Assembly (NCBI GenBank): GCA_001817065.1
Contig: MHHQ01000005.1
Span: 18,651-82,650 of the forward strand
Origin: Candidatus Andersenbacteria bacterium RIFCSPHIGHO2_02_FULL_46_16
GTDB taxonomy: Bacteria; Patescibacteriota; Andersenbacteria; UBA10190
DNA: 64,000 nt
Direction: 5' to 3'
The translations under genes and the position numbers were made by a program. The notes beneath the pieces were generated by a model. It saw only the letters and a program-made list of their open reading frames with translations. It did no database searches and was not told the origin of the DNA. Each line of letters opens with the position of its first letter. Positions within the stretch are counted from its first letter, which is position 1. Below, in pieces: positions 12,044 through 37,995 of the stretch.

Positions 12044-12595
12044 ACCTACCCGTATTTTCCAGCCACGACTAAAACCATGCTGCTGATCCACGATCTCGGC
12101 AAAACTTTCTTCTGTCCCCTCAAGAGCAACCGCCTGGTTGACGATAGTGGCGGCATTAGACCATACAACAACGTCAGTGAGCTCAAGTGGTCAGAACATG
12201 AGCTTGAACATGGCAAGTTGGTCAAAGTCAAAGGTTTTCCCGGCTCTTTCAAGCTGATGCTGTTCCGCATCATGGTCTCTACCAACCGGACGGAATACAT
12301 CGTTACCAACAACCTAACTCAAAACTCCCTGGCTGATGCTCAACAAGCGAGCGCCACCAGGTGGAAGATTGAGCAGCTTCATCGCGAGGAGAAACAGCTG
12401 ACCGGTATTGAAAAGTGTCAGGCCAGAATTAACCGCTCTCAGCGTAATCATATTTGCCTGGCAATGTTGGCTTGGAGCGTGCTCACCCAAGCCGCCCACG
12501 CTGCCGGCAAAACCATCTACCAGCAGAAATTGTCGCCGTTGCAACGATTCGTGGTCAATCAGTGGCGGAATCCGGCGACAACATTTGTGTTGTAA
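12044..12595 (+). pseudogene. C-terminal fragment of a DDE transposase (IS701/IS4-like), N-terminally truncated IS remnant
   Basis: 'ATRWKIEQLHREEKQLTGIEKCQARINRSQRNHICLAMLAWSVL' matches the C-terminal catalytic-E signature of IS701/IS4 transposases (RWxIE…K…G…Q.R…H…L.ML). Only about 170 aa are present, and the frame opens abruptly after AT-rich DNA with no N-terminal DDE region. Confidence 0.6.
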
Positions 12596-20142: not shown

Positions 20143-21135
20143 ATGCCAAAGGTTATAATTATCATAATATTTGCAGTTTTGGTACTGGGCATTATATTGG
20201 GTGGGTCTTTTTTAGTGTGGCAACAATTTGGTGGATCTAATACGGCAGGAGAAACGCCGATCCAGGATAACACCGGCGCTTTGTTTGGCACATTACCGTC
20301 CGCGGAACAGACCCAGAACCAACCGACCGATGGAGCCTTACTTGATACGGGAGATAACGATCAAGACGGTTTAACAAATAGCGAGGAGCAGGTTTGGGGG
20401 ACGGACATTAATAATCCCGATACCGATGGGGACGGTTATTTAGACGGAGAGGAAGTAGTGGCAAACCATGATCCAAATAAACCCGCACCGGATGATTTAT
20501 TGGCGCCAACCCAGACTACCCAACTTACCGCAAACCAAGTACCAGCACCGCTGACTAATTTGACGACTGCCAGTATTGAACGATTCTTTGCAGACGATGT
20601 GGATTTATCCGGAGAACCAATAAATTTAACTACCGAGTATAACAACCAATACGCGGAGACTGATCGTTCCCCGGCAACCATGAGCGAATTTGCGGCAAGA
20701 CAAGTCGTCATTACAAAATTACCCAGACCGCAGGATAGCGCGCTGCCTGAGACCAAAGAAACAACGCCGGCATTGGTTGAGCAATACCTAACAATTGCCA
20801 ACAACCCCTCAGCGTTAGCTAATTCCAGTATTTATTCGGACGCACAGTTTGAGCTTTATCGAAACAACAACGCTGGCGCGATGAGCAATATTGCCAATAC
20901 AGTAAGATCGTATCGAACAGGTTTACAAAATGCGTCGGTGCCGGCGATAGCAGCACCCGTCCATATTTTGCTATTAGGATATACAGAGCTGCTGACGAAT
21001 ACTTTTGAGAAAATAGCTTTATGGAACGAGGATCCGGTGACGTCGATGGTTGCATCAAGACAATTAGAGGCGATAGACAGAACATATTATCCAATTATTC
21101 AAAATGAACTGCAGCGCCTGGAGGCTTTGCAGTAG
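20143..21135 (+). CDS. N-terminally membrane-anchored protein with thrombospondin type-3-like Ca-binding repeats
   Basis: TM anchor 'IIIIIFAVLVLGIILGG', then 'DTGDNDQDGLTNSEE…DTDGDGYLDGEE' (DxDxDGxxDxxE repeats). Confidence 0.55.
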   Translation: MPKVIIIIIFAVLVLGIILGGSFLVWQQFGGSNTAGETPIQDNTGALFGTLPSAEQTQNQPTDGALLDTGDNDQDGLTNSEEQVWGTDINNPDTDGDGYLDGEEVVANHDPNKPAPDDLLAPTQTTQLTANQVPAPLTNLTTASIERFFADDVDLSGEPINLTTEYNNQYAETDRSPATMSEFAARQVVITKLPRPQDSALPETKETTPALVEQYLTIANNPSALANSSIYSDAQFELYRNNNAGAMSNIANTVRSYRTGLQNASVPAIAAPVHILLLGYTELLTNTFEKIALWNEDPVTSMVASRQLEAIDRTYYPIIQNELQRLEALQ

Positions 21136-21144
21136 TGATAAGCT

Positions 21145-24100
21145 ATGACAATTCCAGTTTGGGGGCTGCTCGGTGTTTTTACTTCGACATTTGTGGCGCC
21201 ATTTGTAAGTGCTGTGGCACCAATCCCGCTCGCCCTACCGCAAACGGTTCGCTATGACGAATATATAGCCAATCAAATTGCCCGGGCGGAATTTTCTAGT
21301 GATCCACAACATTTATTATCAATATATAAGACAGCGGGTCAGGCGGAAGGACGGAAAGGAGAGCAAGGGCCCTTCATCACAGCTTTTATTTATAGCGGCA
21401 GTACTTGCAGCACTATTGGAGACGAGCAAAGTTATCGGATTGTACTACACAATATCGGCAATGAAACAGCTCAATCGATATCGGTGCAGAATTTGTACCC
21501 GGAATACACTAGCTTACTGAGGGCTGAACCAGAAGCCGAACATGACTCTACACAAAGATTGTTGACGTGGGGGGGGCAAGAATTAGCTAGCGGCGGCACG
21601 CTTACTTTCTACTTCAGCGTTAAAACAGAACAAGCAGCCGCGGGTTATCTCGATAACCTAACAGTCTATTACGGAGGAGGGGATAACGGTATGAAAGTTA
21701 CTATTGGCGAGCGGGCATTGTCGGGTGTTTGTACGGTAACAGACAGTATTAGAAGTTTTATAGCTGGCCGAGCGGCCCCTAAACCAGCGATTCTTTGTGA
21801 TCCAGCAGAACAAGGATGCTCCTCGAATTATCAAGGAGTAGGGCTGGGCCCTAATTACCGACGAGCCTTGCAACCGGGGAATCAACCTACCATCTGCTCG
21901 CTACATGACAAACAACTACGGCAAGGCCAAGTGATACCGTGTAGAGATAATCTGCCGCAATTAGGCCCCATGTTTGCTGAGGCGATGGCTGATATTCTAC
22001 CGGGGGAGTGCCGAACGTTAGAAGATAATCGTGTGGTTCAACCGGGTATGAACGATGCTTTGAATCGTCGAAGTAAACCGGCGGCTTATTACATGGGCCC
22101 ATTAAATGGTGTCGCTGTATATGAGAGCGGCAATGACTTTAAAAGAGTGGTGCATGAGAATTCTTTACTAGGCATCAAGAATCTGGACGGGGTTCGTGAT
22201 GTTTTAATGCCAGTGCATATAAGTAACTGGGGAGAATTTGTGAAGATAGCCCGTAATGTTTACTCGGGCAGCATGGATCCCGATGCAGCCGTGGCGGACA
22301 TGCAAGGGAGAAAGGCTACATGGGAAAGTAATGTTCAGTCACAGCATTCCTCACTTAATACCGCCTATGCCGTAGTGCAGAACGCACGAAAAAATAATTT
22401 TAAAAGCATTCTGTGCGGTGGATCCAATTTGTCTGATGTAAATACATGTAAACTGCTGTCCAATGCGCAGAGTACCATTCGCGCTGCCTGTTGTGGTTTA
22501 GAGATTTTGCTGCAAACACGGGCAGATCTGGCTAAGGGTATTATCCCAGCTATACCTTATGACTGTCCCAAGGCCAGAGCGTTTGGAACCGGGGGTTTGG
22601 AAACCGGGTTACCGCAAGTATATGCGGCCTATGAAGAAAGCCTGAACAGCAGCTCTTTCCCGGCAGCTCAAAACAAGAGCTTGAATGATTATTCCCTAAT
22701 GCTAGATAGCTGGGAAAGCAGATTCGTCCCGGCAATTGATAAATATAAGTCAGGCGACAAAGAAGCAATGGTTCAATTTATCAATAAGATGCAAGAAGAT
22801 CAGGTGACAGTATTCGCGAATAGTCTAATGAAGGCTTATCGAGAACAGATGTTGGTTGATATTAATAATGACAATAAAATTCGTTTGGGTATCTATGAGG
22901 ACAAATTAAATAAACCAAAGGAAATCGCTACTTCTTGCGCTAAAGAACTGCCCAACGAATATGATACACCGGACATCCGGTCGGTGGAATTAACGATGTG
23001 CGAAAACGGCACGCCATCACAACCAGTGGTCGCTGAGGTAAACTTGCGGGAAGAAACAAATGAAATTTATTCTCGCCAGCCGATTGCCCCGCCGCTGATT
23101 ACTCAGGTACAGGTTACTATAGACCAACGGATGACTTTTGGTTCATCATGTTCCGGCCGGCCAGGGGACCCTTGGTGGGCAGCGGATTGTTCGTGTGATT
23201 GCGGTCAGGTTGTCCCGGTTTCCGAAGGCAGCTTACAGTTTTGCATGGCCGGACAGGGGTATTATACGGTGGGCGGTTTACCGCCACCGCCGGGATGGCC
23301 AAGACCAGATTACTTACCTCCCGGAATTCCAGAACCATACGTCTATAACAATGTGCCTAATAGCTTGGCAGGCTGGTGGCAAGCGATTAAATATTCAAGC
23401 CGACAGGGGCTGGTGGAATTTAGTATTAATAGAGTCGAAACGAAAAGCTTATCGCTGAAAAAGGCAACTGTGCTTTCATGGATTGGTGAAAAATTTGTAC
23501 AACCCGTTATGGCTCAAGTGGGGATAACTTCTCCGTTGTCTTCACCGCCGATGCCACCCGATCCACCGCCACTAGATCCCCTAGAAACTTTGCCAGCCGG
23601 CACATGCGGTGACGGAACAATAGACGCAAATGAGAGTTGTGACGCAGCAGCAGTACCAAACGGATGTCCTGCAGATAGCATTTGCAGTCTTTGTATATGT
23701 ACGATGGGTGCACCGTCAGTAACTCCTGTGTTTATTCCGACACAAGGAGTGTCTCCGGCGATGTCTCCAGTTAGTCCAGTACCTTCGGTCTCGCCAGCAG
23801 CATCAGCTTCTATACAGCCGACTATCACACCCAGTCCGTCTCCGCTGATTCCACCGACGGTCCCAATTGATCCAACACCGCCGATTACTCCGACAATCCC
23901 GCCCACTGTAACCCCAATGGTAACGTTAGAGCCACCCAGCTTAGCTCCGTCGACAGAAGCCTCTCCAGCTAGTCCGGCACCTACATTATCTCCGGCTGTT
24001 ACACCAACAATAGCTATATCGCCAAGTCCGTCTCCACTGATTACACCGACGGTCCCAATTGATCCAACACCGCCGATTCCTCCGACAGTGCTGCCCACGG

Positions 24101-24567
24101 TAAGTCCAATGGCATCTAGGTCACCTTCACCACTAATTAGCCAGTCACCGTCGCCGAGCCCATCTTCTTTGATGTCTCCATCGCCATCTTTGCCCCCCTG
24201 CCCCTCCGCGAGCCCGCAACCTAGTGTCAACCCGTCACCCAATATTAGCCCCTCTCCCTCCTCATTGCCTTTACCATCCACCAGCATCCAATCACCATCT
24301 CCGGAAATTGTTAATCCAATTGTCTGGCATGATATCTGGGTAACTTCGAAGGCAGAATGCTTAGCTAATTTCCAAGGCTGTCATCATTTCAATCCGAGCG
24401 GTAGTTGTGTAGAAGAGCCGTCACCACCGCCACCTCCACCTCCCTCGCCGGAGATTTCTCCCTCATCACCACCTCCCTCGCCGTCAACAAAACAGAGCCC
24501 GCAGCCATCCCCTGTGGTTTCGCCAAAGCTGTGCGTGAACCCCGACGGAACAGTTGTTTATTATTAA
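21145..24567 (+). CDS. Giant secreted surface protein with Myxococcus-type Cys-rich motif and C-terminal Pro/Thr/Ser-rich tandem repeats
   Basis: 1140 aa with a signal peptide. 'CGDGTIDANESCDAAAVPNGCPADSICSLCIC' motif. Duplicated block 'SPSPSPLI(P/T)PTVPIDPTPPI(T/P)PT…'. Poly-Pro C-terminus. Confidence 0.6.
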   Translation: MTIPVWGLLGVFTSTFVAPFVSAVAPIPLALPQTVRYDEYIANQIARAEFSSDPQHLLSIYKTAGQAEGRKGEQGPFITAFIYSGSTCSTIGDEQSYRIVLHNIGNETAQSISVQNLYPEYTSLLRAEPEAEHDSTQRLLTWGGQELASGGTLTFYFSVKTEQAAAGYLDNLTVYYGGGDNGMKVTIGERALSGVCTVTDSIRSFIAGRAAPKPAILCDPAEQGCSSNYQGVGLGPNYRRALQPGNQPTICSLHDKQLRQGQVIPCRDNLPQLGPMFAEAMADILPGECRTLEDNRVVQPGMNDALNRRSKPAAYYMGPLNGVAVYESGNDFKRVVHENSLLGIKNLDGVRDVLMPVHISNWGEFVKIARNVYSGSMDPDAAVADMQGRKATWESNVQSQHSSLNTAYAVVQNARKNNFKSILCGGSNLSDVNTCKLLSNAQSTIRAACCGLEILLQTRADLAKGIIPAIPYDCPKARAFGTGGLETGLPQVYAAYEESLNSSSFPAAQNKSLNDYSLMLDSWESRFVPAIDKYKSGDKEAMVQFINKMQEDQVTVFANSLMKAYREQMLVDINNDNKIRLGIYEDKLNKPKEIATSCAKELPNEYDTPDIRSVELTMCENGTPSQPVVAEVNLREETNEIYSRQPIAPPLITQVQVTIDQRMTFGSSCSGRPGDPWWAADCSCDCGQVVPVSEGSLQFCMAGQGYYTVGGLPPPPGWPRPDYLPPGIPEPYVYNNVPNSLAGWWQAIKYSSRQGLVEFSINRVETKSLSLKKATVLSWIGEKFVQPVMAQVGITSPLSSPPMPPDPPPLDPLETLPAGTCGDGTIDANESCDAAAVPNGCPADSICSLCICTMGAPSVTPVFIPTQGVSPAMSPVSPVPSVSPAASASIQPTITPSPSPLIPPTVPIDPTPPITPTIPPTVTPMVTLEPPSLAPSTEASPASPAPTLSPAVTPTIAISPSPSPLITPTVPIDPTPPIPPTVLPTVSPMASRSPSPLISQSPSPSPSSLMSPSPSLPPCPSASPQPSVNPSPNISPSPSSLPLPSTSIQSPSPEIVNPIVWHDIWVTSKAECLANFQGCHHFNPSGSCVEEPSPPPPPPPSPEISPSSPPPSPSTKQSPQPSPVVSPKLCVNPDGTVVYY

Positions 24568-24626
24568 TTTTTCTGAGGTCACCTTGTTAGTTAAATAATA
24601 TAAGATATAATAATTAAATAATCATT

Positions 24627-25367
24627 ATGAATGAAACAACAGAAGGAAATAACCCGTATCAATCACCGGTAGGAGATCCATTAGACCAGCGTTCGCCGCT
24701 GGGGGAGGAGGTAGAGCGAACGGGTCTTCGAATAGCGGTGGTAGTAGCGGTAGTTATATTAGTACTATTTGGGTTGTATTGGGGTGGTAAATTGCTGTTA
24801 ATGCCAGGAGAAAAGGAGACTCCTGGGGGGCAAGGTGGCGTAGAGGTTTCGGTGGGATCGAAATGCAGTGATCCAACTGTTTATACGGACATTAATGTGG
24901 CATTAAGTAACGCGGGAGCAGTGTGCAAGATAGATTTGAGCGGACAAAATTTACCGTCACTGCCTATTTCGATTGGCTATTTTTCAAACTTAGTAGAACT
25001 AGATGTAAGTAATAATGAAATCTCTTGGCTGCCATCGGAGATAGGGTGGCTACAAAAGTTAGAGAAATTTGATACCAGTAATAATAAACTGCCTTCTTTA
25101 GCGCTAGAAATAGGGTGGCTTCGCAAGTTGAAGGAATGGAATTTATCGAACAACCAACTCACTTGGTTACCAAGTGAAATTGGCTGGTTAGTAGAGATGG
25201 AGAATTTGAACTTGTCTAATAACCAACTTAGTGCTGTTCCAATAGATTTAGGTTGGATGGCTAAGATGCAAAAATTAGATTTGTCTGGCAACCCTCCGGA
25301 AGTGGCAGCGTCTGCCGACAGACTGAGGCCTTATATGGCCGGTGCAAATATTGTTTTACCGCAGTAG
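24627..25367 (+). CDS. Membrane-anchored leucine-rich repeat (LRR) protein
   Basis: Anchor 'VVILVLFGLYWGG', then about 8 LRRs ('LDVSNNEISWLPSEIGWLQKLEKFDTSNNKL…'). Confidence 0.7.
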   Translation: MNETTEGNNPYQSPVGDPLDQRSPLGEEVERTGLRIAVVVAVVILVLFGLYWGGKLLLMPGEKETPGGQGGVEVSVGSKCSDPTVYTDINVALSNAGAVCKIDLSGQNLPSLPISIGYFSNLVELDVSNNEISWLPSEIGWLQKLEKFDTSNNKLPSLALEIGWLRKLKEWNLSNNQLTWLPSEIGWLVEMENLNLSNNQLSAVPIDLGWMAKMQKLDLSGNPPEVAASADRLRPYMAGANIVLPQ

Positions 25368-25382
25368 TTGTAAACCCCCACA

Positions 25383-25408
25383 CCCTAGCCTAAAGGCCAG
25401 GGCTTTTT
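25383..25408 (+). terminator. Rho-independent terminator after the LRR gene
   Basis: CCCTAGCC-TAAA-GGCCAGGG stem-loop followed by CTTTTT. Nested inside a larger inverted repeat, 25375-25385 against 25463-25473. Confidence 0.55.
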
Positions 25409-25613
25409 AGCGGAGCTAATATAAAAACCGTTCATCACCGGCCTTAAAGGCCGGCGCTTCTTGGGTGTGGGGGTAAAATTTGGCTGGCTCAATGTTCAAC
25501 CTGGTGCATGTCAGGCGGTGTTGATTTAGCGATGGCTGGACAGTGAACAGATAGTCTTTGATTGCCATGCGCGATAGATTATACTGGAGCTTATTGATGG
25601 ATAATCTTGTACT

Positions 25614-26498
25614 ATGAATCCGATAAATAAAATGGGGTGGCGAGTAGTGGGGATGACGACAGTGGTTGTATTAGTTATAGCTGGGTTATATTGGGGAGGA
25701 CAGAAATGGCTTAAAGGAGACGGTGATCAAACAACGACACCAGGCGGGTCTTTGTCTTTGGCCGATAAAACGCGAGATAGCGATGGCGATGGGATGGCCG
25801 ATTTGTACGAAACAGCTTTCTATAGTACTAATCCCAATAGTGCTGATACAGACGGTGATGGAACGGGTGATCGGGACGAGGTGGTGGCTGGCCGAGATCC
25901 GCTGATTCCAGGTCCAAACGATGTCAGTAAGCCGGCAACGGGTGAGCAAATCACTCAAGTGGACACCTTTACCAAAAAATATTTGGCATCGTTGCCAGAG
26001 GATGTGCCGCGCGAACAGATTCTGGATCAAGTAAGAATAGAAGCGTTCGTCAATGCGAATAAGGGAGCATTGCTGCCACCGGTCACTATAACTACTTCAT
26101 CGAATGAGGGAAAAGAGGCAGTGCAGGCTTACTTGGATGCCGTATCCAGCACACATAATAAAGAGTTGCGTATTGTTACGAGCGCAGATGTTGAGGCGGC
26201 ATTCCGGCTGCTGATTAATACCCAAGACAAGCAGCCAATGCAGGGGATTGTTGATGTTTTACGAAAGAATGTAGTGATACTGCAAAAAGTCACAGCACCG
26301 AACGAGGTAGCAGGCTTGCACGAAAAGATGATCGCAGCGACAACCGCGCTCCAAATCAACAGCGAGGGATTACTTAATATTGACCAGGATTTTGTCGGCG
26401 GTTTGATTGCGGCGAAAAAAATCGAGGAACTAGGTGGGGTGTTTCAGGAGATGGCGACATCGGTTAAGGAATTGGAGACTAAGTATGGATTGGAATAA
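25614..26498 (+). CDS. N-terminally membrane-anchored protein with TSP3-like Ca-binding repeats (paralog of 20143..21135)
   Basis: Anchor 'VVLVIAGLYWGG', then 'DSDGDGMADLYE…DTDGDGTGDRDE'. Same architecture as the 20143 gene. Confidence 0.55.
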   Translation: MNPINKMGWRVVGMTTVVVLVIAGLYWGGQKWLKGDGDQTTTPGGSLSLADKTRDSDGDGMADLYETAFYSTNPNSADTDGDGTGDRDEVVAGRDPLIPGPNDVSKPATGEQITQVDTFTKKYLASLPEDVPREQILDQVRIEAFVNANKGALLPPVTITTSSNEGKEAVQAYLDAVSSTHNKELRIVTSADVEAAFRLLINTQDKQPMQGIVDVLRKNVVILQKVTAPNEVAGLHEKMIAATTALQINSEGLLNIDQDFVGGLIAAKKIEELGGVFQEMATSVKELETKYGLE

Positions 26499-26590
26499 AC
26501 GAAACATGCATAAAACACAGGGGACGAAACATGCACAAAGCACAGAACACAAAACCCAAACAAAGCACAAAACTAACAGACCAAACAAAT
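26499..26590 (+). repeat. A+C-rich strand-biased intergenic repeat (family core CACAAAGC(C/A)CAAACAAA(A/G)CACA)
   Basis: 'gaaacatgcacaaagcacagaacacaaaacccaaacaaagcacaaaac'. The plus strand is almost devoid of G and T. Same family as 30798-31075, 32013-32180 and 33240-33300. Confidence 0.75.
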
Positions 26591-26620
26591 ATACCGGTAA
26601 TTTTTAAGGAAGAATGGAAA

Positions 26621-28360
26621 ATGGAAATAAGGAAACAAGAAAAAGAATATCGGAAAAAACTAAGCGTCGGGGCGCTAGTTTTGGGTTTAGTGGCTTTAAG
26701 CATGACGGCGGACGTACGTGATGCCTGGGCCGATCCGCATGGGATATTTTATACAGCAATCGGGCAACAACAATTGTTTTTTAACGTGTTAGCGGCACTG
26801 GATCAGGCCGACTATGTGGAAACAGCCTTTGATCGAGAAGCGCGCCGAAAAGCCCGGGAAGCAGTATCTGCCGAGCAGCCTTTTGCCAAAGAGACTGAGT
26901 CGGGCGGACGCTTTACAAAAGAAACAGAGGTGGCCAGCGATAGCGGATACTTAACACAGCCCGGCACACCGACATTGCTTAACCGAGCAGTGACTTTGGA
27001 TGGAGCAGACCTGTACACTGATCAGCTAGTGCGGGAATTCGGGGCGGAATCGGCGAGGCGTAACGCGGCAGCGGAGCTGCTGCAGACACTGTGCGCATAT
27101 GGGTTTGGTATTAAGGAATGTGATAATGAAATTAAACCAGGGCTAACACCTGAGCAGAGACAGGCCGAGGTCTTGGCTATGGAGCAGCGCCGGCGTGAAG
27201 CAGTAGTGGTAGATCCGTTGGAGTGGCAAGCTATGCCTGTTTTAAATGGTGTTTTAGCCGCATTGAATTCGGGAACAGAGGAGGATGAGACTGAACGAGC
27301 TTTAAGATGGGTATTTCAGATTAATGAACCATATGCTTTTTCAAACGAAGTGGCGTTATGGCGTCAGCAAATAAACCAACTACCCGAGTTGGAAAGACCA
27401 GCGCATCTGGCAACGCTGCAAGGGATGATTGATGAAGTGGCAACGCAATATATGCCAGATAAATCAGTGTCTTGGCCGTTTTTAGAAATTAAAACCGAGG
27501 CGGACGGAAGTGGCTCTTATAGACATCTTATATGGAACCCTATTAGCGCTTCTGATTGTTGGCCTAATAATAGGCGCACTGTCCCTTGTTTGGAATACAA
27601 CTACGGCGAAGCATTGTCTCAGGCTGGTTTGCCCACAGACGTAGCGTCTTATGTGAAAAGAGTTAATGATGCCATTTTTAGCGATTCGTCAAGACTAAGC
27701 AATGTAGCTTCAGAAGCATTTAAAAGAGTGGAATATCAACAAGGTTTGATAGAAAATGAGGGTTTGTTGGCGGACGCGAACCTAAAAAGCAATCCACCTC
27801 CTTCTCCGTCGCCGGACGTAACGCCGTTATCAAGTTACGGGGAATTATCGTTGCTGATTAATAATCCGGTAGCAGCGCGGAAAGCTAGCGTTTATGGCAT
27901 ACCAAACGTACTGGGGCAACTAGCGACCAGCCAGCAAGCCAGTTCGTTAACAGGCTTGGATAATCCGGGAGGCGTGCAATTAGTGAAAAGAAGCGGCAGC
28001 AGCGGTACGCCGGGGAGCGGAGAGCCGGAATGCAGTAATGGAGTAAATGACGACGGTGATAATTATATTGATTACCCGCTGGATCCGGAATGTGCTAGTG
28101 CAACCGACACTTCAGAAAGCCAGTCGGGACCGCAAGCCGCGGCGAGCAACACCGGCCCGCAGGTGGCTGGAGCGCTGGATTTATTATTTAAGCCCAGTGA
28201 GAATTTCTTTGATAAAGATAAGGATCCGACCTCTCCGTCGGCTAATATAATTTCACCAATACTGGAGTTTGGCGCACGCCATGCCTTGCGGGTAATGACC
28301 GCTGGCAAGTGGCGGCCGGGGACAACTGCTGGTGTTACGTGCGGATTTACGTGTGATTAA
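26621..28360 (+). CDS. Secreted protein with a Cys/Asp-rich 'ECSNGVNDDGDNYIDYPLDPEC' motif, hypothetical
   Basis: The track ORF starts at 26531 inside the CA-rich repeat. The probable true start is ATG 26621, preceded by AAGGAAG, followed by a signal peptide 'LSVGALVLGLVALSMTA'. Confidence 0.55.
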   Translation: MEIRKQEKEYRKKLSVGALVLGLVALSMTADVRDAWADPHGIFYTAIGQQQLFFNVLAALDQADYVETAFDREARRKAREAVSAEQPFAKETESGGRFTKETEVASDSGYLTQPGTPTLLNRAVTLDGADLYTDQLVREFGAESARRNAAAELLQTLCAYGFGIKECDNEIKPGLTPEQRQAEVLAMEQRRREAVVVDPLEWQAMPVLNGVLAALNSGTEEDETERALRWVFQINEPYAFSNEVALWRQQINQLPELERPAHLATLQGMIDEVATQYMPDKSVSWPFLEIKTEADGSGSYRHLIWNPISASDCWPNNRRTVPCLEYNYGEALSQAGLPTDVASYVKRVNDAIFSDSSRLSNVASEAFKRVEYQQGLIENEGLLADANLKSNPPPSPSPDVTPLSSYGELSLLINNPVAARKASVYGIPNVLGQLATSQQASSLTGLDNPGGVQLVKRSGSSGTPGSGEPECSNGVNDDGDNYIDYPLDPECASATDTSESQSGPQAAASNTGPQVAGALDLLFKPSENFFDKDKDPTSPSANIISPILEFGARHALRVMTAGKWRPGTTAGVTCGFTCD

Positions 28361-30297
28361 TGATTATGAGGATTATTAGAAACAATATTGCTCTACCCCC
28401 ATACCAGACAATTTCATCAGTCAGGGCAGTGATGGGTGATGGGCTCTTTCATTCCTATAAGAAAGCCTCGTTTTTTAGCCTGTGGTATGGTGGTTTAATT
28501 GTTTTGATACTGGTTTGTTTGGTTGGTTTAAGACCAGCGTTAGCGCAGGAATTAGCACCGGTTGATCTTGATGTGCCTAGGTTGGCGCATGAGACGCAGA
28601 GTGAGCTTATTGCTCTGGGTTGCGAAGAAGTGGATCTTACAAACAAACAGGCTTTGCTAGCGGCCAGAGCGCAGAGCTGGCAACTAATAATACCGGTTGA
28701 TGCTAATGGGAATAGCATGACGTTCTGTTCTATACAGGCAGTAGAAAAATTGCAGCCGTTGAGAGGAGGACAAGTTAAACAAGCCGCGACTGGTTGGCGT
28801 GAAGTATTAGGAAGAATTGGTCTTTTTGGTTTTGATGCCACTTCTTTTCTTCTAACGGGCTCGATTGGTTGGCTTTTTACTTTAGGTGCTCAAATAGGTG
28901 GTTCCGTGTTTAGTTACACTATTTTGCTTTTAACACCGTTGTTTCTTGTTTCTGAGCATATAACAAACAGTACTGTGAGAAGCCTCTGGCCGATAGTTCT
29001 GGGCATAGTTAATCTTGGATTTATGTTAGCTTTGGTTTTTATTGCACTGACAACAGTCTTACGGTTAGAGGTTGGCGGTGGAGTAAGGCGGTCACTGCCA
29101 CGCTTGTTGCTAGCAGCGCTGTTAGTAAATTTTAGTTTAGTGATAGCCGGCGTAGTAATTGATTTTACACGATTGTTAATAAGGGTCTTGGCGGTTGTTT
29201 TCTCGGTGCCTGATCTTACTAGTGACTTGCCTGGTCTTTTAGAGCCAGCTGGTAATTTCGGTCCCATATATGAGGCATTGAAAACCGTGGGGCCGACGTG
29301 GTCATCATCAACTAATGCTCTTAGGGCTTTTATTGGTATGTTAATTGTCTGGATGGTGGCTAGCTCGGGGTTGGTGCTTTTGTTCAATTTGGCAATGCGG
29401 TACATAATGTTGCTTGGTTTGTTGATAGTTTCCCCGTTCGCCTATTTGTTTGTGGCTCTGCCAAATACAGCTAAATTGGCTGGTTTATGGTGGTCATCGT
29501 TTTTTAAATATGTTTTTTATGCGCCAGCAGCACTGTTGATATTGCTGCTAGTTGGGAAGATGAGTCAGATGTCTCTCCCCGGAATCACCGATGGGGTTGC
29601 AAGTGGTTTGGTAAGTGTAATGTTTTTGACCGTCGGTTTTATCGCGGCAGCTCGTGCCGGTAAGTATGCGGGCATTGCGGGATCAGCGGCGATGATTAGT
29701 TTTGCACAAAAAACGGGGCAAAAAGGGAGAAATTTGATGTATAGGGGAGCAAGGGGAATGGGTAGGGGATACATGGCAGCCACAGGGGCTCGAGCTGCCA
29801 CTAAGTATGCTGGTGCGCAGATTGGTTTATTTGGCCGGACGGCCGGTAAAAACCTGTTGTCTTACATTCCTGGTGCGGGCAAAGCAGCAAAGACAAAGGG
29901 TGGCCCGATGGCCGATCGCTTGTTACCAAGTAAAGGTGAACGACAAGCTCGGGCTGCGGCAGTTACGGCGGCCAGGGCTGGTAATTATAATGACCCGTCT
30001 TTGGGATCATCTAGATTGGCAAACAGCGTTGTTGGCGCTCATTTAGCTAGGCAGGCAGGACCTCAGCTTGCAAATATGGGCGCAGTGGGTACCGCAAGCC
30101 AAATTAATGCGGCAGTTAAGAATAAAGAATTAGTTAGAAATTTGGACGATACACAAAGGGCTAATTTAGAAGCTCAAATATTAGTTAATACGTCTTTCAG
30201 TGTTGCCCCAGAAGAAAATGAGAAAGTACGGCAGAGGTTGATCAATGAGTTGAATAACACAATAAGAGACGTTGAATCAAAAGACTATAAAGCCTAA
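28360..30297 (+). CDS. Polytopic membrane protein, VirB6/TrbL-like (putative T4SS channel component)
   Basis: 645 aa, at least 8 TM segments, then a Gly/Ala/Arg-rich hydrophilic tail. Start ATG overlaps the upstream stop (TAATG). Assignment is by architecture and context only. Confidence 0.4.
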   Translation: MIMRIIRNNIALPPYQTISSVRAVMGDGLFHSYKKASFFSLWYGGLIVLILVCLVGLRPALAQELAPVDLDVPRLAHETQSELIALGCEEVDLTNKQALLAARAQSWQLIIPVDANGNSMTFCSIQAVEKLQPLRGGQVKQAATGWREVLGRIGLFGFDATSFLLTGSIGWLFTLGAQIGGSVFSYTILLLTPLFLVSEHITNSTVRSLWPIVLGIVNLGFMLALVFIALTTVLRLEVGGGVRRSLPRLLLAALLVNFSLVIAGVVIDFTRLLIRVLAVVFSVPDLTSDLPGLLEPAGNFGPIYEALKTVGPTWSSSTNALRAFIGMLIVWMVASSGLVLLFNLAMRYIMLLGLLIVSPFAYLFVALPNTAKLAGLWWSSFFKYVFYAPAALLILLLVGKMSQMSLPGITDGVASGLVSVMFLTVGFIAAARAGKYAGIAGSAAMISFAQKTGQKGRNLMYRGARGMGRGYMAATGARAATKYAGAQIGLFGRTAGKNLLSYIPGAGKAAKTKGGPMADRLLPSKGERQARAAAVTAARAGNYNDPSLGSSRLANSVVGAHLARQAGPQLANMGAVGTASQINAAVKNKELVRNLDDTQRANLEAQILVNTSFSVAPEENEKVRQRLINELNNTIRDVESKDYKA

Positions 30298-30299
30298 TC

Positions 30300-30797
30300 T
30301 TGTGCAGATTGTTTAATATGGGTCTTGATTATAATAGTATACCGTCGGGATCGGTGGTAACCGTGTCGCAAGCCGAAGGAGAGCAATATGTGGCGGGATT
30401 GTTTGAATTGCCCCAGATAGCTCGACAAGCCATGGTGTCGACGCGAACAGGGGCGTTTGTGAGAGGCCTGACTAAGGCTTATGGGCTGGAACAGATTAAA
30501 GCGCCGATAATTGCATTGTCAATATTAAAAACAGGGATTGGCAAGATACCGCTTAGTGGGTTGGGGGCTTATTTATCTGGCCAACTAAGGCTTCCTAACG
30601 ATAAAGCGCAAAGGATGGCGCGCGAGATAGAACAAGATTTATTTGAACCAGTTCGGCAGGAGCTGGAGGCGCATTGGGCGAAGCAGAAAAAAGAGGAACC
30701 GGGAAGGCAAGCACAGACGAAAGCGACAGAAGGAGGAGCAAGGAATGTGCTGAATCTTAAGATGGACAAAGCTCCGCCTAAGCCACCGTGGAGATAG
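30300..30797 (+). CDS. Hypothetical protein of the T4SS-like cluster
   Basis: 165 aa, no motif. An alternative start lies at 30318. Confidence 0.4.
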   Translation: MCRLFNMGLDYNSIPSGSVVTVSQAEGEQYVAGLFELPQIARQAMVSTRTGAFVRGLTKAYGLEQIKAPIIALSILKTGIGKIPLSGLGAYLSGQLRLPNDKAQRMAREIEQDLFEPVRQELEAHWAKQKKEEPGRQAQTKATEGGARNVLNLKMDKAPPKPPWR

Positions 30798-31102: not shown

Positions 31103-31483
31103 ATGACACGACATACAAGTCCATATCGTGATCTGGAGGAACGAACATTATTGTTTGCCAAAGAGGTATTAAGAATGTGTCAGTCTTTACCTAAAAGTAC
31201 TATTAATAATAGGTTGATTGATCAACTGATTAGATCGGCCGGGTCAGTAGGGGCGAATTACCGAGAGGCAAACGACGCTATAAGCAAGAAGGATTTTGTT
31301 CATCGTTTACGTATTGCACGAAAGGAAGCAAAGGAAACGAGCTATTGGCTTGATTTGTTACGGGAGGTTAATGTGGAACTGGTGGATAAAATTTCAGTAT
31401 TACAACAAGAGGCAATAGAGCTGAGAAATATCTTGTCTGCTATAATTCAGAAATGTGAGGTTAAGTCCCGTGAACGTGTTTGA
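31103..31483 (+). CDS. Four-helix-bundle protein (TIGR02436 family, '23S rRNA intervening-sequence protein'-like)
   Basis: 126 aa. 'SAGSVGANYREA…KDFVHRLRIARKEAKETSYWLDL' matches the family signature. Confidence 0.65.
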   Translation: MTRHTSPYRDLEERTLLFAKEVLRMCQSLPKSTINNRLIDQLIRSAGSVGANYREANDAISKKDFVHRLRIARKEAKETSYWLDLLREVNVELVDKISVLQQEAIELRNILSAIIQKCEVKSRERV

Positions 31484-31545
31484 TAGGTTTGTAATATTGG
31501 ATTTTGTTTGGGCTTTGTGTTTTGAGTTTTTATATAGTTTATAAT

Positions 31546-31992
31546 ATGCGATTTCAAGTTCCCCAATTCGTCGACATTGAAGATCGGATTATTGGTCCGC
31601 TGACGCTAAAGCAATTTGCTTTTTATCTGATTGCGGCCATGATCATTGGCATTTTATATGTCATGGTAAGTTTAGGCGTGCTGATCGTGTTGGCATTGCC
31701 GATTGCGGGGACAGCTTTGCTGTTTGCTCATGCGAGGTTTTATGGGCAGCCGTTCGGTCAGGTGCTGATTAATGGCATTAGCTATGCTATGGGGTCGAAG
31801 TTGTATTTATGGCGAAGAACTGACAAGGATAACAAGATAAAAATCAGCGGGTCGGAGTTTAGCGATGAAGCGGAAGTATATGGGGTTTCATCTATTGACT
31901 TGATGAGCCAAACTTTAAACACAGAAGGAAATGTCGTGGGAGCAGATTTAGAGGACCCGTTGCTCGAAGAACCGGAGGGGAGCAAGGATTGA
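31546..31992 (+). CDS. PrgI-family protein (VirB3-like T4SS component)
   Basis: 'MRFQVPQFVDIEDRIIGPLTLKQFAFYL' matches the PrgI N-terminal signature, followed by two TM segments. The track ORF starts at TTG 31504. ATG 31546 is directly abutted by TATAAT. Confidence 0.6.
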   Translation: MRFQVPQFVDIEDRIIGPLTLKQFAFYLIAAMIIGILYVMVSLGVLIVLALPIAGTALLFAHARFYGQPFGQVLINGISYAMGSKLYLWRRTDKDNKIKISGSEFSDEAEVYGVSSIDLMSQTLNTEGNVVGADLEDPLLEEPEGSKD

Positions 31993-32350: not shown

Positions 32351-32507
32351 CTATACAAACTTAATTCCAAAATATCCTCTTAAGGACCAATGAATGAACG
32401 AGATGGGGACCGTGGGAAGGAAAGGGAAGAAGTAGAAATACGGAGAAGGGGAGGCTTGCAACAAAAAGAATAGAAAGGGGCAGGGCGATAAGGTAAACTA
32501 TTAAGTG

Positions 32508-33239
32508 ATGTTAGAGAAGGACCAAAAAGGCAAATCCAGTCAGGAACTAGTGCAGATTACGGCGGTACGCGACGGAGTGGTGGTATTGGGGAATAATACC
32601 TTGCGGGCGACTTTGATCGTGTCTTCATTAAACTTCGCCTTAAAGTCTGAAGAGGAGCAAGATGCAATAATTTATGCCTTTCAAGGTTTTCTAAACTCAC
32701 TGGATTTCCCGGTACAGATTTTAGTGATGTCGAGAAAGCTGGATATTACATCCTATTTAGAGGAGCTGGATTCTCGTAAAGAACGGCAAAAAAATGAACT
32801 GCTGCGCTTGCAGATGGCCGAATATATTAATTTTATTTCAGAATTGGTCAAGGGTGGTAATATTATGACCAAGACTTTTTTTGTCTCCGTTTCGTTTGCG
32901 ATGGCGCAGAGCCGACAGTTGAACACGTTGGAAAAACTGGCCAAGACATGGCAAGGCATTGGAAAAGGCAATAAGCCATTTACTGACGTAGAGTTTGAGC
33001 ATTACAAGAAGCAATTAATGCAACGGGTGGAGCAAGTAGCTGTTGGTTTAAGAGGAGTGGGTTTACGTGTGGCACCGCTACAGACGCAAGAAGTGCTGGA
33101 ATTGTTTTACAGCATCCTAAATCCTGTTACGTCACGCAATTTACGTTTGCACAATGTAGCCAAACTGAGCGTAGAGGAAACCGGGGCACCAGACTTAGTG
33201 TCTAGCAACAGATCAGAGCAGCCGTGGGTGAGCAGGTAG
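32508..33239 (+). CDS. VirB4/TrbE-family N-terminal domain (CagE_TrbE_VirB-like), a separate ORF
   Basis: 'ITAVRDGVVVLGNNTLRATLIVSSLNFALKSEEEQDAIIYAFQGFLNSLDFPVQILVMSRKLD' resembles the conserved N-terminal region of VirB4 ATPases. No Walker motifs. The ORF ends at TAG 33237-33239. Confidence 0.5.
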   Translation: MLEKDQKGKSSQELVQITAVRDGVVVLGNNTLRATLIVSSLNFALKSEEEQDAIIYAFQGFLNSLDFPVQILVMSRKLDITSYLEELDSRKERQKNELLRLQMAEYINFISELVKGGNIMTKTFFVSVSFAMAQSRQLNTLEKLAKTWQGIGKGNKPFTDVEFEHYKKQLMQRVEQVAVGLRGVGLRVAPLQTQEVLELFYSILNPVTSRNLRLHNVAKLSVEETGAPDLVSSNRSEQPWVSR

Positions 33240-33468: not shown

Positions 33469-35298
33469 GTGGATATGCTGGGATTTAAAATTAAGAGGCA
33501 AACTAAGCAACAAAAGAAACCCGAGAAAGCCTTGCCTGAAGACCAGGCTAAGTTAAAGCAATGGCAGGAGGGAGTGGTGCGTTTGAAGGACATTCTAGCC
33601 CCAGCGGCTTTTTCAGTGTCCACTAAATATGTTGAGATAGACGGCAAGTTTGCCACGACGTTATTTGTGACGGCTTATCCGCGCTATCTGGAAACTAATT
33701 GGCTGTCACCAATAGTGAATTTTGATGTGGAGTTCGATATGGGGATGTTCGTTTATCCACAAGACTCCGCCACGATTTTAAGGCAATTGAAAAAACAGAT
33801 CACCCAAGTGTCCGCTTCGATAATCATGCGGACGGAGAAAGGTAAAGTGAGGGATCCACAGTTAGAAACTGCCTACCGAGACATTGAAGAACTGCGGGAC
33901 AGACTGGTGCAGGGAACGGAACGATTTTTTCAATTAAGTTTGTATCTGACGCTATATGCCGACAGTCAAGAAGAGTTAGAGGAAACTGTCGGACAGATTG
34001 AAGTGTTGTTAGAAGGCCGCCTGGTCTATATTAAGCCGGCTATATTCCAAATGAAGGAAGGATTCTTTTCGACCATTCCGCTGGGGCAGGACAAGCTGGC
34101 GAGAACTACCAACATGAGCTCATCGTCGCTATCAACAACCTTCCCTTTCGTGAGCTCCGACCTTTCTAGCAGTAATGGAATTTTGTTCGGTATTAATTTG
34201 CACAACAACAGCTTAATATTGTTTGATCGATTTAGTTTGGGCAATGCTAATATGGTGATCTTCGCTAAGTCTGGCGCGGGTAAATCGTACGCGGTTAAAC
34301 TTGAGATATTGCGGCAATTGATGTTTGATACGGAAGTGATTGTAATTGATCCGGAAAAGGAATACCGTTATTTGTCTGACTCGGTGGGCGGGGCTTATCT
34401 GCGGATAGCCACAGCGTCCGACCACAGGATCAACCCATTTGATTTGCCGGAGTTGGGAGAGGAAGACGAGCCAGAAACGGTGCTGCGGGAGAATATAACT
34501 CGTTTAATTGGTTTGGTTTCGCTGATGGCCGGGGGGTTTTCGCCAGAGGAAAACTCGGTGGTAGATAAGGCTTTGTGGGAAACATATGCGCTGAAAGATA
34601 TTACTAAAGGCATTAGATGGACAAAGCCTGAGGTGCCGACTTTGCAGGATTTTTATAATATTGTTGGCGACATGGAAGGCGGCGCTAATATTGCCTTGCG
34701 GATTGAGCGGTTTGTGGAAGGGACTTTTGCTGGGGTTTTTAACCGACCAACCAACATCGACTTGGATAATCAACTAGTAGTGTTCAATGTGCGTGATATG
34801 GAGGAGGAGCTGCGGCCGCTAGCTATGTATGTCGTCTTGGGGTTCATTTGGAACAAAGTACGTAGCTCGTTAAAGAAAAGAATACTGGTAGTGGACGAGG
34901 CGTGGGTGATGATGCAACACGAGGAGTCGGCTAAGTTTATGTTCTCCATCGCAAAACGGGCACGCAAATATTACTTAGGTGTAACGACGATTACGCAGGA
35001 TATACAGGATTTTCTGGATTCTAAGTACGGTAAACCGATTGTCACAAACTCTTCTTTGCAGCTGCTACTGCGCCAGTCGCCAGCGGCGATCGATTTGTTG
35101 GCGGATGTGTTTTATCTGACCGACCACGAGAAGTTTAGATTATTGGAAAGTGATGTGGGAGAAGGTATTTTATTTGCCGGGCTGAAACATGTAGCGATTA
35201 AAGTAGTGGCCAGTTATGCGGAGGACCAGGTAATAACCAGCGATCCACAGCAGGTGCTGGCGATTGAGGCGGCGAAGAGAGAGATGGCGGCTAATTGA
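33469..35298 (+). CDS. virB4: VirB4/TraE-family type IV secretion ATPase (C-terminal two-thirds)
   Basis: Walker A 'FAKSGAGKSY', Walker B 'ILVVDEAWVMM', 'YYLGVTTITQDIQDF'. N-terminal region 'YVEIDGKFATTLFVTAYPRYL' is VirB4-like. Track start is GTG 33469; first ATG at 33475. Confidence 0.8.
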   Translation: MDMLGFKIKRQTKQQKKPEKALPEDQAKLKQWQEGVVRLKDILAPAAFSVSTKYVEIDGKFATTLFVTAYPRYLETNWLSPIVNFDVEFDMGMFVYPQDSATILRQLKKQITQVSASIIMRTEKGKVRDPQLETAYRDIEELRDRLVQGTERFFQLSLYLTLYADSQEELEETVGQIEVLLEGRLVYIKPAIFQMKEGFFSTIPLGQDKLARTTNMSSSSLSTTFPFVSSDLSSSNGILFGINLHNNSLILFDRFSLGNANMVIFAKSGAGKSYAVKLEILRQLMFDTEVIVIDPEKEYRYLSDSVGGAYLRIATASDHRINPFDLPELGEEDEPETVLRENITRLIGLVSLMAGGFSPEENSVVDKALWETYALKDITKGIRWTKPEVPTLQDFYNIVGDMEGGANIALRIERFVEGTFAGVFNRPTNIDLDNQLVVFNVRDMEEELRPLAMYVVLGFIWNKVRSSLKKRILVVDEAWVMMQHEESAKFMFSIAKRARKYYLGVTTITQDIQDFLDSKYGKPIVTNSSLQLLLRQSPAAIDLLADVFYLTDHEKFRLLESDVGEGILFAGLKHVAIKVVASYAEDQVITSDPQQVLAIEAAKREMAAN

Positions 35299-36007: not shown

Positions 36008-36436
36008 ATGAAATATTTTTTACATAGCAAAATAAGAAGTGGAAAGGTTTTAATTATAACGTTTATACTATTCTATGGTTTAGGGTTGCCACATTCAGTT
36101 AAAGCACAGGCCGCGGTCCCTTGCCCTTGGGGCTTTTTGGAAGTGCTTGATGTAGACGGCGTTAGAGATATTTGCAGTATTATTGGTGGCAGCGGTGCTA
36201 CGGCTACAACGGCAATTGGAAGATTGTTGAGTTGGGTGACGTTAAGCTTGACAGCGCTAGTGATGATGGCAGCAGCGGTTGGCATTGTGATAGGCGGTTA
36301 TATATATATGACGGCGGGGGGCAGCGCGGATCGGGTGCAGCTGGCAAAAACTTGGATAATTGCTGCTTTACTGGGGATTACGATCGCTTTAACGGCTTTT
36401 GTGCTGCTGAATACAATTAGCACAACACTGGTTTGA
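36008..36436 (+). CDS. VirB2/TrbC-like pilin (putative)
   Basis: 142 aa. Signal peptide ending 'VKAQA', then two hydrophobic helices separated by a short loop ('VTLSLTALVMMAAAVGIVIGGYIYMTAGGSADRVQLAKTWIIAALLGITIALTAFVLL'), the classic T4SS pilin topology. Confidence 0.5.
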   Translation: MKYFLHSKIRSGKVLIITFILFYGLGLPHSVKAQAAVPCPWGFLEVLDVDGVRDICSIIGGSGATATTAIGRLLSWVTLSLTALVMMAAAVGIVIGGYIYMTAGGSADRVQLAKTWIIAALLGITIALTAFVLLNTISTTLV

Positions 36437-36441
36437 TTTCA

Positions 36442-37995
36442 TTAAAGATGAATTTTTCTAGAGGGATGATTAGAAGTCTGGTTTTTTGTTATAGTAAGCA
36501 GGAGATGACTGAAGGTTTGCGCGATTAGACAAGTAACTATTGTCCAATGGAGAGCAGCGAGATCGTTTTTCCAGTAAATGGTATCGGCTAGGCCGAAGAT
36601 AAGAATAGACAATAGGGCGAGGGTAAGGGTTTGTGTTTGGTAAGTGATCAAAAAATGATTGGTTTGTATTGGTGTGATTGAGTGTTGATTATGCCCACCG
36701 GTGATTTTTAGTACGCTACGCCAAGCATGAACGAGAATATAGGCATTGAGCAGGATAAAGCTGACTAAGCCCAACAAGCCGGTGTTAAGCCAGAAAGAGA
36801 GAAGCCAGTTGTGGGGATCTCGAAAGACAAATTCTGGTAGCGGGGATTCACATTTTTTTGTTGAAAGCTGACAGTTAGCGAATTGTGTAAAGCGTTCGTG
36901 CAGTTGGTTTTGGTAGGCCGGTTCGAAAGTACCCAGCCCGACGCCGAGAAGGGGGTGATCCTTTATCAGATCCACGCTGATGCTCCAAAGCTGTTGGCGA
37001 ACAGACAATGAATTATGAGTATCCGAGGAGGAAAGGGGCTGCAGGAGATAGGTTAAGCGTCCCGTGGACGATAGATAACCAAGGGAGATAAACACGAGAG
37101 TAAGAACAGCCCCCCAGCGAAGGTAAAGAGGTCGACGAGTGGCGGTAGATGTTGAGGTTGGTTGAAAAAGGATTAAGCCGATAGAGACGGAAATAAAAGC
37201 GGCAGAAATACCAGCGACTGACTGCGTAGCGAGCAGGGCGGCAGCGAGGATGAGCGAAGAGGGGAGATAGAAAAGTCGTTGATGGCGGTTAAAGAACAAC
37301 CAGACGGAGATAACAAGTAGCGGGACTAAATATAGTGCTAAAGAGTTTGGTACGTCATAAACACTCTTGATACGAGCAAGGTGATTTATTTGCGACAACC
37401 CAAGCAACGCGACAATATTACCGGACAGAACAAGTGATTGAATAATCAAGAAATAATAATTAGGTGAGAAAGTTTTGGCAGGAAGAGTTTTTGTTTCGGC
37501 AAAGGGGCTTCGAAGAGGTTCTGGGGCAGAGTCAGATGAAGGGAAGAAAGACTGGGCGGATATTATCAGCCAACCCAGCAGAAGGGGAACAATGATCCAT
37601 CCTTTTAGTATGCCCAGACTGGTAAGGATGTGTGGCGAGATAATCGTGCTAACGATGGCCGAAAGGACAAAAAGAGCAATCAGCAGATGGAGGAATGACG
37701 GTAGGGCGCGCCAGATTATTGGCCACTGTCTGCGAATAGAAGGTTGAATAAAGGTAAAAAAGAAAACAGTTACAATAGACGCTTCCAGTAAATTGGTGGG
37801 AAGACTGAAGAAAGAAAACTGAATAAGATAGGTGGGCAATAAGGCTGTGAGTAAAACCAGCGCGCTGGACGGGCGAGACAAAGTTAACAGGGACAGCAGA
37901 AGAAGAGCAGGGACGATAAGAAAAACGATCATGGACGGGGGATGATTAAGGAAATAATAATTGCCACGGTGATCAGAAGGTGGGAGTACAGCCAA
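36442..37995 (-). CDS. O-antigen ligase (Wzy_C) family polytopic membrane protein
   Basis: 'HPLLGVGLGTFEPAYQ…HNWLLSFWLNTGLLGL' Wzy_C-like motif. At least 10 TM segments. Confidence 0.6.
   Translation of the reverse strand: MAVLPPSDHRGNYYFLNHPPSMIVFLIVPALLLLSLLTLSRPSSALVLLTALLPTYLIQFSFFSLPTNLLEASIVTVFFFTFIQPSIRRQWPIIWRALPSFLHLLIALFVLSAIVSTIISPHILTSLGILKGWIIVPLLLGWLIISAQSFFPSSDSAPEPLRSPFAETKTLPAKTFSPNYYFLIIQSLVLSGNIVALLGLSQINHLARIKSVYDVPNSLALYLVPLLVISVWLFFNRHQRLFYLPSSLILAAALLATQSVAGISAAFISVSIGLILFQPTSTSTATRRPLYLRWGAVLTLVFISLGYLSSTGRLTYLLQPLSSSDTHNSLSVRQQLWSISVDLIKDHPLLGVGLGTFEPAYQNQLHERFTQFANCQLSTKKCESPLPEFVFRDPHNWLLSFWLNTGLLGLVSFILLNAYILVHAWRSVLKITGGHNQHSITPIQTNHFLITYQTQTLTLALLSILIFGLADTIYWKNDLAALHWTIVTCLIAQTFSHLLLTITKNQTSNHPSRKIHL

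Follow-up and report, generated by a model that had tools for sequence, protein, structure and literature searches.

Protein families restricted to Andersenbacteria and encoded beside a type IV secretion-like gene cluster: possible extracytoplasmic accessories and a shared membrane anchor

Directly upstream of a gene cluster resembling a type IV secretion system (T4SS), an uncultured patescibacterium encodes undescribed accessory protein families that are attached to this known secretion system in one uncultured lineage. The genes occupy positions 20143-28360 of a 64,000-nt stretch (hereafter the window; contig MHHQ01000005.1, positions 18,651-82,650, forward strand) of the assembly GCA_001817065.1, Candidatus Andersenbacteria bacterium RIFCSPHIGHO2_02_FULL_46_16. 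There are five of them, all on the + strand, in the order S1, L1, leucine-rich repeat (LRR) protein, S2 and L2; an original prediction from the sequence had placed them there, and we recovered all five open reading frames (ORFs). KsgA, an rRNA adenine dimethylase gene, lies directly upstream of them and the T4SS-like cluster directly downstream of L2. Homologs with taxon names belong to Candidatus Andersenbacteria, a class-level lineage of the Patescibacteria (candidate phyla radiation, CPR). From the gene context we favour, with modest assurance, the reading that S1, S2 and L2 serve the patescibacterial T4SS as lineage-specific accessories outside the cytoplasm, with L1 and the LRR proteins as variable adhesins of the cell surface. 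A bolder version, in which S1, S2 and L2 would be the missing extracellular part of the T4SS, neither VirB8 nor VirB5 in kind, and the GLYWGG helix a portable docking anchor for interchangeable host-binding ectodomains, appears doubtful to us.

Firstly, we compared the two small proteins. Both S1 and S2 possess a single hydrophobic helix at the N-terminus and a pair of D-x-D-x-D-G-x-x-D repeats, the architecture that had been predicted for them and, judged by their sequences, they are true paralogs along their whole length: BLASTP aligns them with E = 3e-11, the similarity reaching far beyond the TSP3 repeats, and their profiles align (hhalign) with a probability of 99.94% (E = 6e-37, 265 columns). 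The expectation that the small proteins were duplicated was thus borne out. The Pfam model TSP3_bac (PF18884) scores 32.9 bits on S1, above its gathering score of 25, and 17.9 bits on the S2 of the window, under that score; it is matched by 58 of the 65 S-family members with E < 0.01. S1 orthologs were found in 20 of 25 species loci and also in L001 and L003 (loci of relatives are designated by L and three digits), and a search with S2 returned about 65 full-length homologs, the taxon names among them being solely Andersenbacteria. An AlphaFold2 model of S2 (mean predicted local distance difference test, pLDDT, 82.9) revealed, in order, the membrane helix, a disordered linker, the TSP3 pair and an all-helical C-terminal domain ending in a four-helix bundle, with pLDDT >90 from residue ~110 on. 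The TSP3 pair superposes on the B domain of Bap, a bacterial TSP3 protein (PDB 7c7r, 7c7u), at 1.1-1.7 Å over ~50 residues with 42% identity, and the S repeats match it by sequence with E = 1.7e-6; outside these ~50 common residues, the remainder of the S proteins is unrelated to it. A Foldseek search with the C-terminal domain of S2 gave nothing significant, the best matches being periplasmic four-helix-bundle sensor domains (E > 1, TM-score ~0.5).

Two further observations concern the S family. In the nine genomes without L1 (L012-L014, L018-L021, L023, L027), S2 is ~260 aa long and has lost both TSP3 repeats, and S1 retains them; the correlated loss of L1 and of the S2 repeats is possibly one evolutionary event in one clade. 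The S-family profile also matched the middle repeats of H. pylori CagY, a T4SS protein (PDB 6odi_b), with a full-sequence E = 5.7e-9, over window positions 25977-26168 (S2 residues ~122-185; common motif LP.D...IL..E.L.AF ... KEAV.AYLD.(I/V)S). This value sums ten weak matches to near-identical repeats, of which the best single one scores 10.6 bits (E = 2.3), and we rejected the likeness as not significant; it is probably due to chance, though curious beside T4SS genes.

Secondly, we analysed the two large proteins. The start of L2 was set at 26621 according to gene callers and orthologs, and at 579-609 aa it is not the giant protein that had been announced. It opens with a Sec-type n-h-c signal ending in AWA (read by eye from the sequence), followed by an invariant mature N-terminus, and carries a CxxxC motif at the C-terminus; its cysteines are paired, 158/167 being invariant. 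In the predicted structure the helical core has a pLDDT of ~88 and the N-terminal region is poorly modelled. No significant Pfam match was obtained for any of the 44 L2 family members; L2 has no sequence match in PDB, and Foldseek found no similar fold in PDB or BFVD. When 1.84 billion cluster representatives were searched exhaustively with HMMER, 145 proteins matched, 143 of them with E < 1e-10; given so few matches, we regard L2 as an orphan family with sharp limits. A 25-nt tandem direct repeat (80% identity, 26499-26548) lies between the S2 stop codon and L2, and the alternative ATG at 26531 falls in its second copy.

L1 is, by comparison, variable. Its homolog search gave only two proteins, probably as low-complexity words crowded the candidate list, and orthologs were taken from the loci of relatives instead. 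The L001 ortholog aligns with E = 1e-93 (BLASTP), the ortholog alignment holds numerous conserved cysteines, and DUF11 (PF01345) scores 27.0 bits on L1, above its gathering score of 24.6, and is matched in 9 of 11 orthologs (best E = 7.8e-10). The orthologs range from 409 to 1418 aa and contain inserted domains such as Calx-beta; in the window protein, Pro, Ser and Thr make up 57% of the C-terminal ~250 residues of the insertion. L1 thus varies in presence, size and inserted domains, as expected for a host-facing protein, and its richness in cysteines, together with the paired cysteines of L2, fits an extracytoplasmic location.

By sequence L1 and L2 are unrelated to each other (BLASTP E = 0.95; hhalign probability 0.1%). 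A Cys-rich motif had been ascribed to both and is indeed present in both, but as different repeat types, each restricted to close relatives, and as lineage-specific insertions rather than family features. The L1 motif scores 13 bits against myxo_disulf_rpt (TIGR02232), under the cut-off of 20.8; the segment that holds it is missing from 7 of 10 orthologs, and P0122, L004 and L005 have their own variable insertion at this position, with no matching CGDG motif. The L2 loop scores 16.6 bits against acid_disulf_rpt (NF033662), under the cut-off of 41, and occurs in 6 of the 44 family members.

Three side observations touch L1. A 99-nt direct duplication within its Pro/Ser/Thr-rich insertion (23822-23920 and 24014-24112, 87% identity, 192-nt spacing) suggests ongoing expansion of the spacer. 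An antisense ORF (23514-24287, - strand, 257 aa, Gly-rich) runs through the low-complexity part; almost certainly it is an artefact that stems from the Pro/Ser repeats of the coding strand. In L025, a distant and GC-rich relative, an upstream 284-aa protein (200-1054) carries CPGDPFWVG ... NWDCFCRWDEQVAC, a motif similar to the invariant L1 Cys module; modules of this type may hence be present in further proteins close to the cluster.

Thirdly, we assessed the gene order among relatives. A scan of one genome per species yielded 25 loci, to which exact-protein look-ups added further ones (L001/L003), and genes were assigned by phmmer. An S gene stands immediately 5' of L2 in most loci, with a gap of ~0.5-0.8 kb in L007, L025 and L028. 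The VirB6-like gene lies 3' of L2 in all 23 checkable loci and follows it directly in 19 of the 23 that could be scored (two contigs end too early); in the other four, all distant, one extra ORF intervenes and L2 is represented by a ~220-aa protein plus a second ORF. The two genes overlap or are separated by no more than ~16 nt in nearly all loci, and in the window the L2 stop codon overlaps the VirB6-like start by one base. PrgI, TrsD-like, VirB4 and pilin genes come after the VirB6-like gene in the loci of relatives, and protein identity across the syntenic loci falls to ~25-30%. The adjoining T4SS-like cluster that the original prediction had noted is directly downstream, and the linkage is tight and durable in 25 species-level genomes and one further metagenome-assembled genome. 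L1 is absent from nine clusters, where the order is S1-S2-L2, and three genomes have L1-S2-S1-L2. The S/L2 synteny therefore holds, as does the likeness of the anchors described below, but neither the S1-L1 nor the S2-L2 pairing is conserved; given the clusters without L1 and the rearranged orders, the duplicated unit is the S gene alone.

The LRR protein shares with S2 its membrane anchor. Pfam models of leucine-rich repeats pass their cut-offs on this protein (LRR_14, 41.2 bits for 40; LRR_4, 37.5 for 27; LRR_8, 33 for 27), and the DNA of the repeats has a period of 69 nt; NCBIfam models of type III effectors match it via the repeats only, far under their cut-offs. Around the membrane helix, 22 of 56 residues are identical to S2 (E = 2e-6). 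A hidden Markov model (HMM) of the anchor, built from the first 36 residues of S2 orthologs and searched against 2011 ORFs from the window and 28 loci, matched S2 orthologs and LRR proteins only, at 38-45 bits for primary LRR copies (40.6 for that of the window) and 14-23 bits for second copies; among these ORFs it matched neither S1 nor VirB6-like, Wzy or other membrane proteins. This specificity indicates that the likeness is homology and not generic hydrophobicity, so that the common anchor proposed for the LRR protein and S2 is upheld.

LRR orthologs are confined to the five closest relatives (L004-L007 and L022), of which some have two copies; in all five, the LRR anchors are similar to that of the S2 encoded in the same genome. 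The S2-type anchor has thus been reused on a different ectodomain, as had been suspected. A recent duplication of the anchor was considered and rejected: the DNA identity of the anchor core is ~60-70% (alignment read by eye) and the arrangement is common to five related species. This low identity makes the event an old one.

The downstream cluster resembles the T4SS described for the phylum. It holds the genes by which MPF-FATA-like (mating-pair formation) T4SSs of Patescibacteria are recognized: VirB4, a TrsD-like protein, VirB3/PrgI, VirB6 (through a weak match in an ortholog, that of L003 to TrbL, PF04610) and a pilin candidate just short of its threshold but kept at the same position in relatives. 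The TrsD/TraC-like protein is matched by VirB4 families over their N-terminal part, and its orthologs carry PF26593. No relaxase or coupling-protein match was found among the cluster ORFs scanned. Patescibacterial T4SSs are related to the MPF-FATA conjugation class of monoderms and are widespread in the phylum, where they come without relaxases (Quinonero-Coronel et al. 2025, PMC12102498). The window has the same repertoire (VirB6-like, PrgI/VirB3, TrsD-like, VirB4 and VirB2-like pilin genes), is likewise chromosomal and has a cluster without relaxase or coupling protein; in contrast, S1, S2, L2, L1 and the LRR protein are not among the components listed in that survey, whose main text does not mention Andersenbacteria.

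We compared the five proteins with known components at corresponding places. The S proteins share with VirB8-like scaffolds (PrgL and PrgD of pCF10; TraM and TraH of pIP501) a small size, one N-terminal membrane helix, an extracytoplasmic domain and a location within the T4SS locus, often as two paralogs; Pfam and NCBIfam scans found no VirB8 family match in them. VirB8 has an NTF2-like alpha+beta fold, whereas the confident S2 model is all-helical, and a VirB8-like identity was rejected on that account. L2 recalls VirB5/TraC, the stalk or pilus-tip protein of Gram-negative T4SSs, in being Sec-exported, largely helical and encoded immediately 5' of virB6; its most distant homologs, of ~200-240 aa, have the size of VirB5, and the L2 of the window is over twice as long. 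As it has neither sequence nor Foldseek similarity to VirB5 structures, this identity was rejected too, in spite of the fitting export signal, helicity and gene position. PrgA, PrgB and PrgC of pCF10 are surface proteins encoded 5' of the channel genes, PrgC having long Pro-rich spacers as L1 does, but they show no sequence similarity to the proteins studied here, whose domains are DUF11, the Cys module, LRR and TSP3. No LPXTG sorting motif is present near the C-terminus of L1, L2, S1, S2 or the LRR protein (translations read by eye).

Taken together, these data suggest that a chromosomal T4SS-like locus related to monoderm conjugation systems has its upstream, extracytoplasmic half in this region, with the three lineage-restricted proteins S1, S2 and L2 as its conserved core. 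S1 and S2 would expose a short N-terminus to the cytoplasm, cross the membrane by one helix and carry outside a flexible linker, a putative calcium-binding TSP3 pair and a helical domain of ~190 residues. Together with L2 they may join the membrane complex of VirB6, VirB3 and VirB4, where they would form, or scaffold, the part of the machine that spans the cell wall or is exposed at the surface. This is the role that VirB8-like proteins and adhesins have in other monoderm systems. A variable layer of interchangeable, surface-displayed binding proteins would consist of L1, which has DUF11, many cysteines and Pro/Ser/Thr spacers that can expand, and of the LRR proteins, which presumably arose by the joining of an S2-type anchor to an LRR ectodomain. 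The shared anchor suggests that such ectodomains are placed beside the machine.

Several points weigh against this proposal. The assignment of S1, S2 and L2 to the T4SS draws on gene context. KsgA, which is unrelated, is equally syntenic in most loci, and synteny alone is for this reason weak evidence of a shared function. Neither the S C-terminal domain nor L2 matches any known T4SS component by sequence or Foldseek. Nine genomes have an S2 devoid of TSP3 repeats, so that its role does not depend on calcium binding. Both the topology in the membrane and the cleavage of signal peptides were assessed by eye.

There is a possible alternative, to which we give limited credence: S1, S2, L1, L2 and the LRR proteins would form an independent surface or attachment system, or an envelope structure, decorating the envelope and binding a host or calcium with no contact with the secretion machine, and would stand beside the T4SS genes merely through frozen gene order in streamlined genomes. 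The equal synteny of KsgA speaks for it, as do the generic nature of TSP3, DUF11 and LRR as surface-protein domains and the fact that none of the five proteins matches a T4SS family. It accounts less well for L2, which is coupled stop-to-start with the VirB6-like gene and precedes it in every checkable locus, and for the S-L2-VirB6 adjacency, which even the remotest relatives (L024-L026) have kept, KsgA having left the vicinity there.

It could also be that the T4SS releases or displays the large proteins, perhaps with the LRR proteins, as its substrates, in the manner of pertussis toxin. The Sec pathway takes this toxin through the inner membrane, after which the Ptl T4SS, a system with no coupling protein, exports it. 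The Sec-type N-termini of L1 and L2 recall this route, the LRR domains resemble those of type III effectors (though via the repeats only), and neither coupling protein nor relaxase lies near the cluster (compare PMC12102498). A Sec-exported protein would, however, meet no outer membrane in a monoderm cell, the LRR and S proteins retain their membrane anchor, and the invariance of L2 and its tight coupling to VirB6 suit a structural part more than a cargo; we judge this explanation improbable. That the genes supply an adhesin or substrate set to the T4SS, as the original prediction offered, is an inference from their context.

Finally, the duplication as a unit of a two-gene module (an anchored TSP3 protein followed by a large secreted protein), read from the local order S1-L1 ... 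S2-L2 and the paralogy of S1 and S2 as two gene pairs of the same architecture, is already contradicted by the dissimilarity of L1 and L2 in both BLASTP and profile comparisons, by the nine genomes without L1 and the three with changed order, and by Cys motifs that are non-homologous, sub-threshold insertions, and retains a negligible probability.

The T4SS-like machine is reported to be essential for epibiotic growth in Southlakia epibionticum, the sole patescibacterium tested genetically (Wang et al. 2023, as cited in PMC12857230). Across the phylum, surveys detected no PrgB-like adhesins and very few VirB8 homologs (PMC12102498). Throughout a class-level lineage, S1, S2 and L2 have remained beside the channel genes, which makes them concrete candidates for the outer part of the machine; the variable LRR and DUF11 proteins are candidate determinants of host range. 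If the anchor were indeed portable, the epibiont would possess an essential apparatus for secretion or uptake that is topped by a modular head for host recognition. The value of these candidates is limited by their restriction to one uncultured lineage, the lack of a recognizable fold and a link to the T4SS that runs through gene context. The coordinates of all features are collected in Table 1.

Table 1. Features of the studied region and of the downstream T4SS-like cluster (nucleotide positions are those of the window)
Feature	Residues	Positions (nt)	Strand	Remarks
S1		20143-21135	+	330 aa, predicted single-pass membrane protein
S1 predicted membrane helix	4-26	20152-20220	+	
S1 two TSP3 repeats	71-111	20353-20475	+	followed by helical C-terminal domain
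L1		21145-24567	+	1140 aa, Cys-rich (30 Cys), variable, hydrophobic N-terminus
L1 DUF11 beta-sandwich domain	89-172	21409-21660	+	
L1 invariant Cys module		23140-23205	+	GxxCxGxPGDPxWAxxCSCxCG
L1 lineage-specific insertion		~23245-24303	+	~350 residues
L1 CGDG motif	821-852	23605-23700	+	inside the insertion
L1 conserved C-terminal piece		24319-24363	+	
LRR protein		24627-25367	+	246 aa, acidic N-terminal tail
LRR protein S2-type membrane anchor	34-54	24726-24788	+	
LRR protein leucine-rich repeats	92-224	24900-25298	+	about six repeats
S2		25614-26498	+	294 aa, predicted single-pass membrane protein
S2 GLYWGG anchor	9-29	25638-25700	+	
S2 two TSP3 repeats	55-96	25776-25901	+	
S2 helical C-terminal domain	105-294	25926-26495	+	
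L2		26621-28360	+	579 aa; ORF open from 26531 (609 aa)
L2 mature N-terminus		26729-26821	+	ADPH..FYT..GQQQLFFNVLAALDQADYVE, invariant
L2 helical core	130-440	27008-27940	+	
L2 acidic disulfide loop	471-491 (579-aa form)	28031-28093	+	ECSNG...DPEC, lineage-specific
VirB6/TrbL-like polytopic membrane protein		28360-30297	+	many hydrophobic segments in translation
Conserved 165-aa protein		30300-30797	+	between VirB6-like gene and PrgI
23S rRNA-intervening-sequence protein family		31103-31483		PF05635, 74.9 bits; between 165-aa gene and PrgI
PrgI (VirB3-like)		31504-31992	+	PF12666, 29.8 bits (cut-off 27)
TrsD/TraC-like protein		32505-33239	+	resembles VirB4 N-terminal part; NCBIfam TrsD, E = 4.8e-8
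VirB4-type ATPase		33469-35298	+	PF19044 P-loop_TraG, 81.5 bits; AAA_10 and DUF87 also match
VirB2-like T4SS pilin candidate		36008-36436	+	PF18895, 23.5 bits, just under cut-off 26.6

Within the downstream cluster, the conserved 165-aa protein has no Pfam or NCBIfam match; an ortholog stands at the same position in most loci, and the four loci of the greatest distance (L024, L025, L026, L028) lack it. A gene of the 23S rRNA-intervening-sequence protein family is also found inside the T4SS cluster beside PrgI in L017 and L026, and not in most relatives. The VirB4 function seems to be split between the TrsD/TraC-like protein of N-terminal type (32505-33239) and the full P-loop VirB4 (33469-35298), a division into two proteins that is reported to be typical for Patescibacteria (PMC12102498). 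Two tandem Wzy_C (O-antigen ligase-like) membrane proteins (36442-39374, - strand) lie just 3' of the pilin gene, at the same position as in L001 and L003; their task might be to glycosylate or polymerise cluster-linked components of the surface.

Promoter and terminator scans of the region returned fewer promoter-like sites than shuffled sequence did, and operon boundaries were therefore not drawn from them. Elsewhere in the window, a DDE transposase fragment lies at 12077-12595. Over the whole window the GC skew is positive, the cumulative skew climbs steadily and the majority of genes are on the + strand, which is consistent with a single leading-strand replichore.

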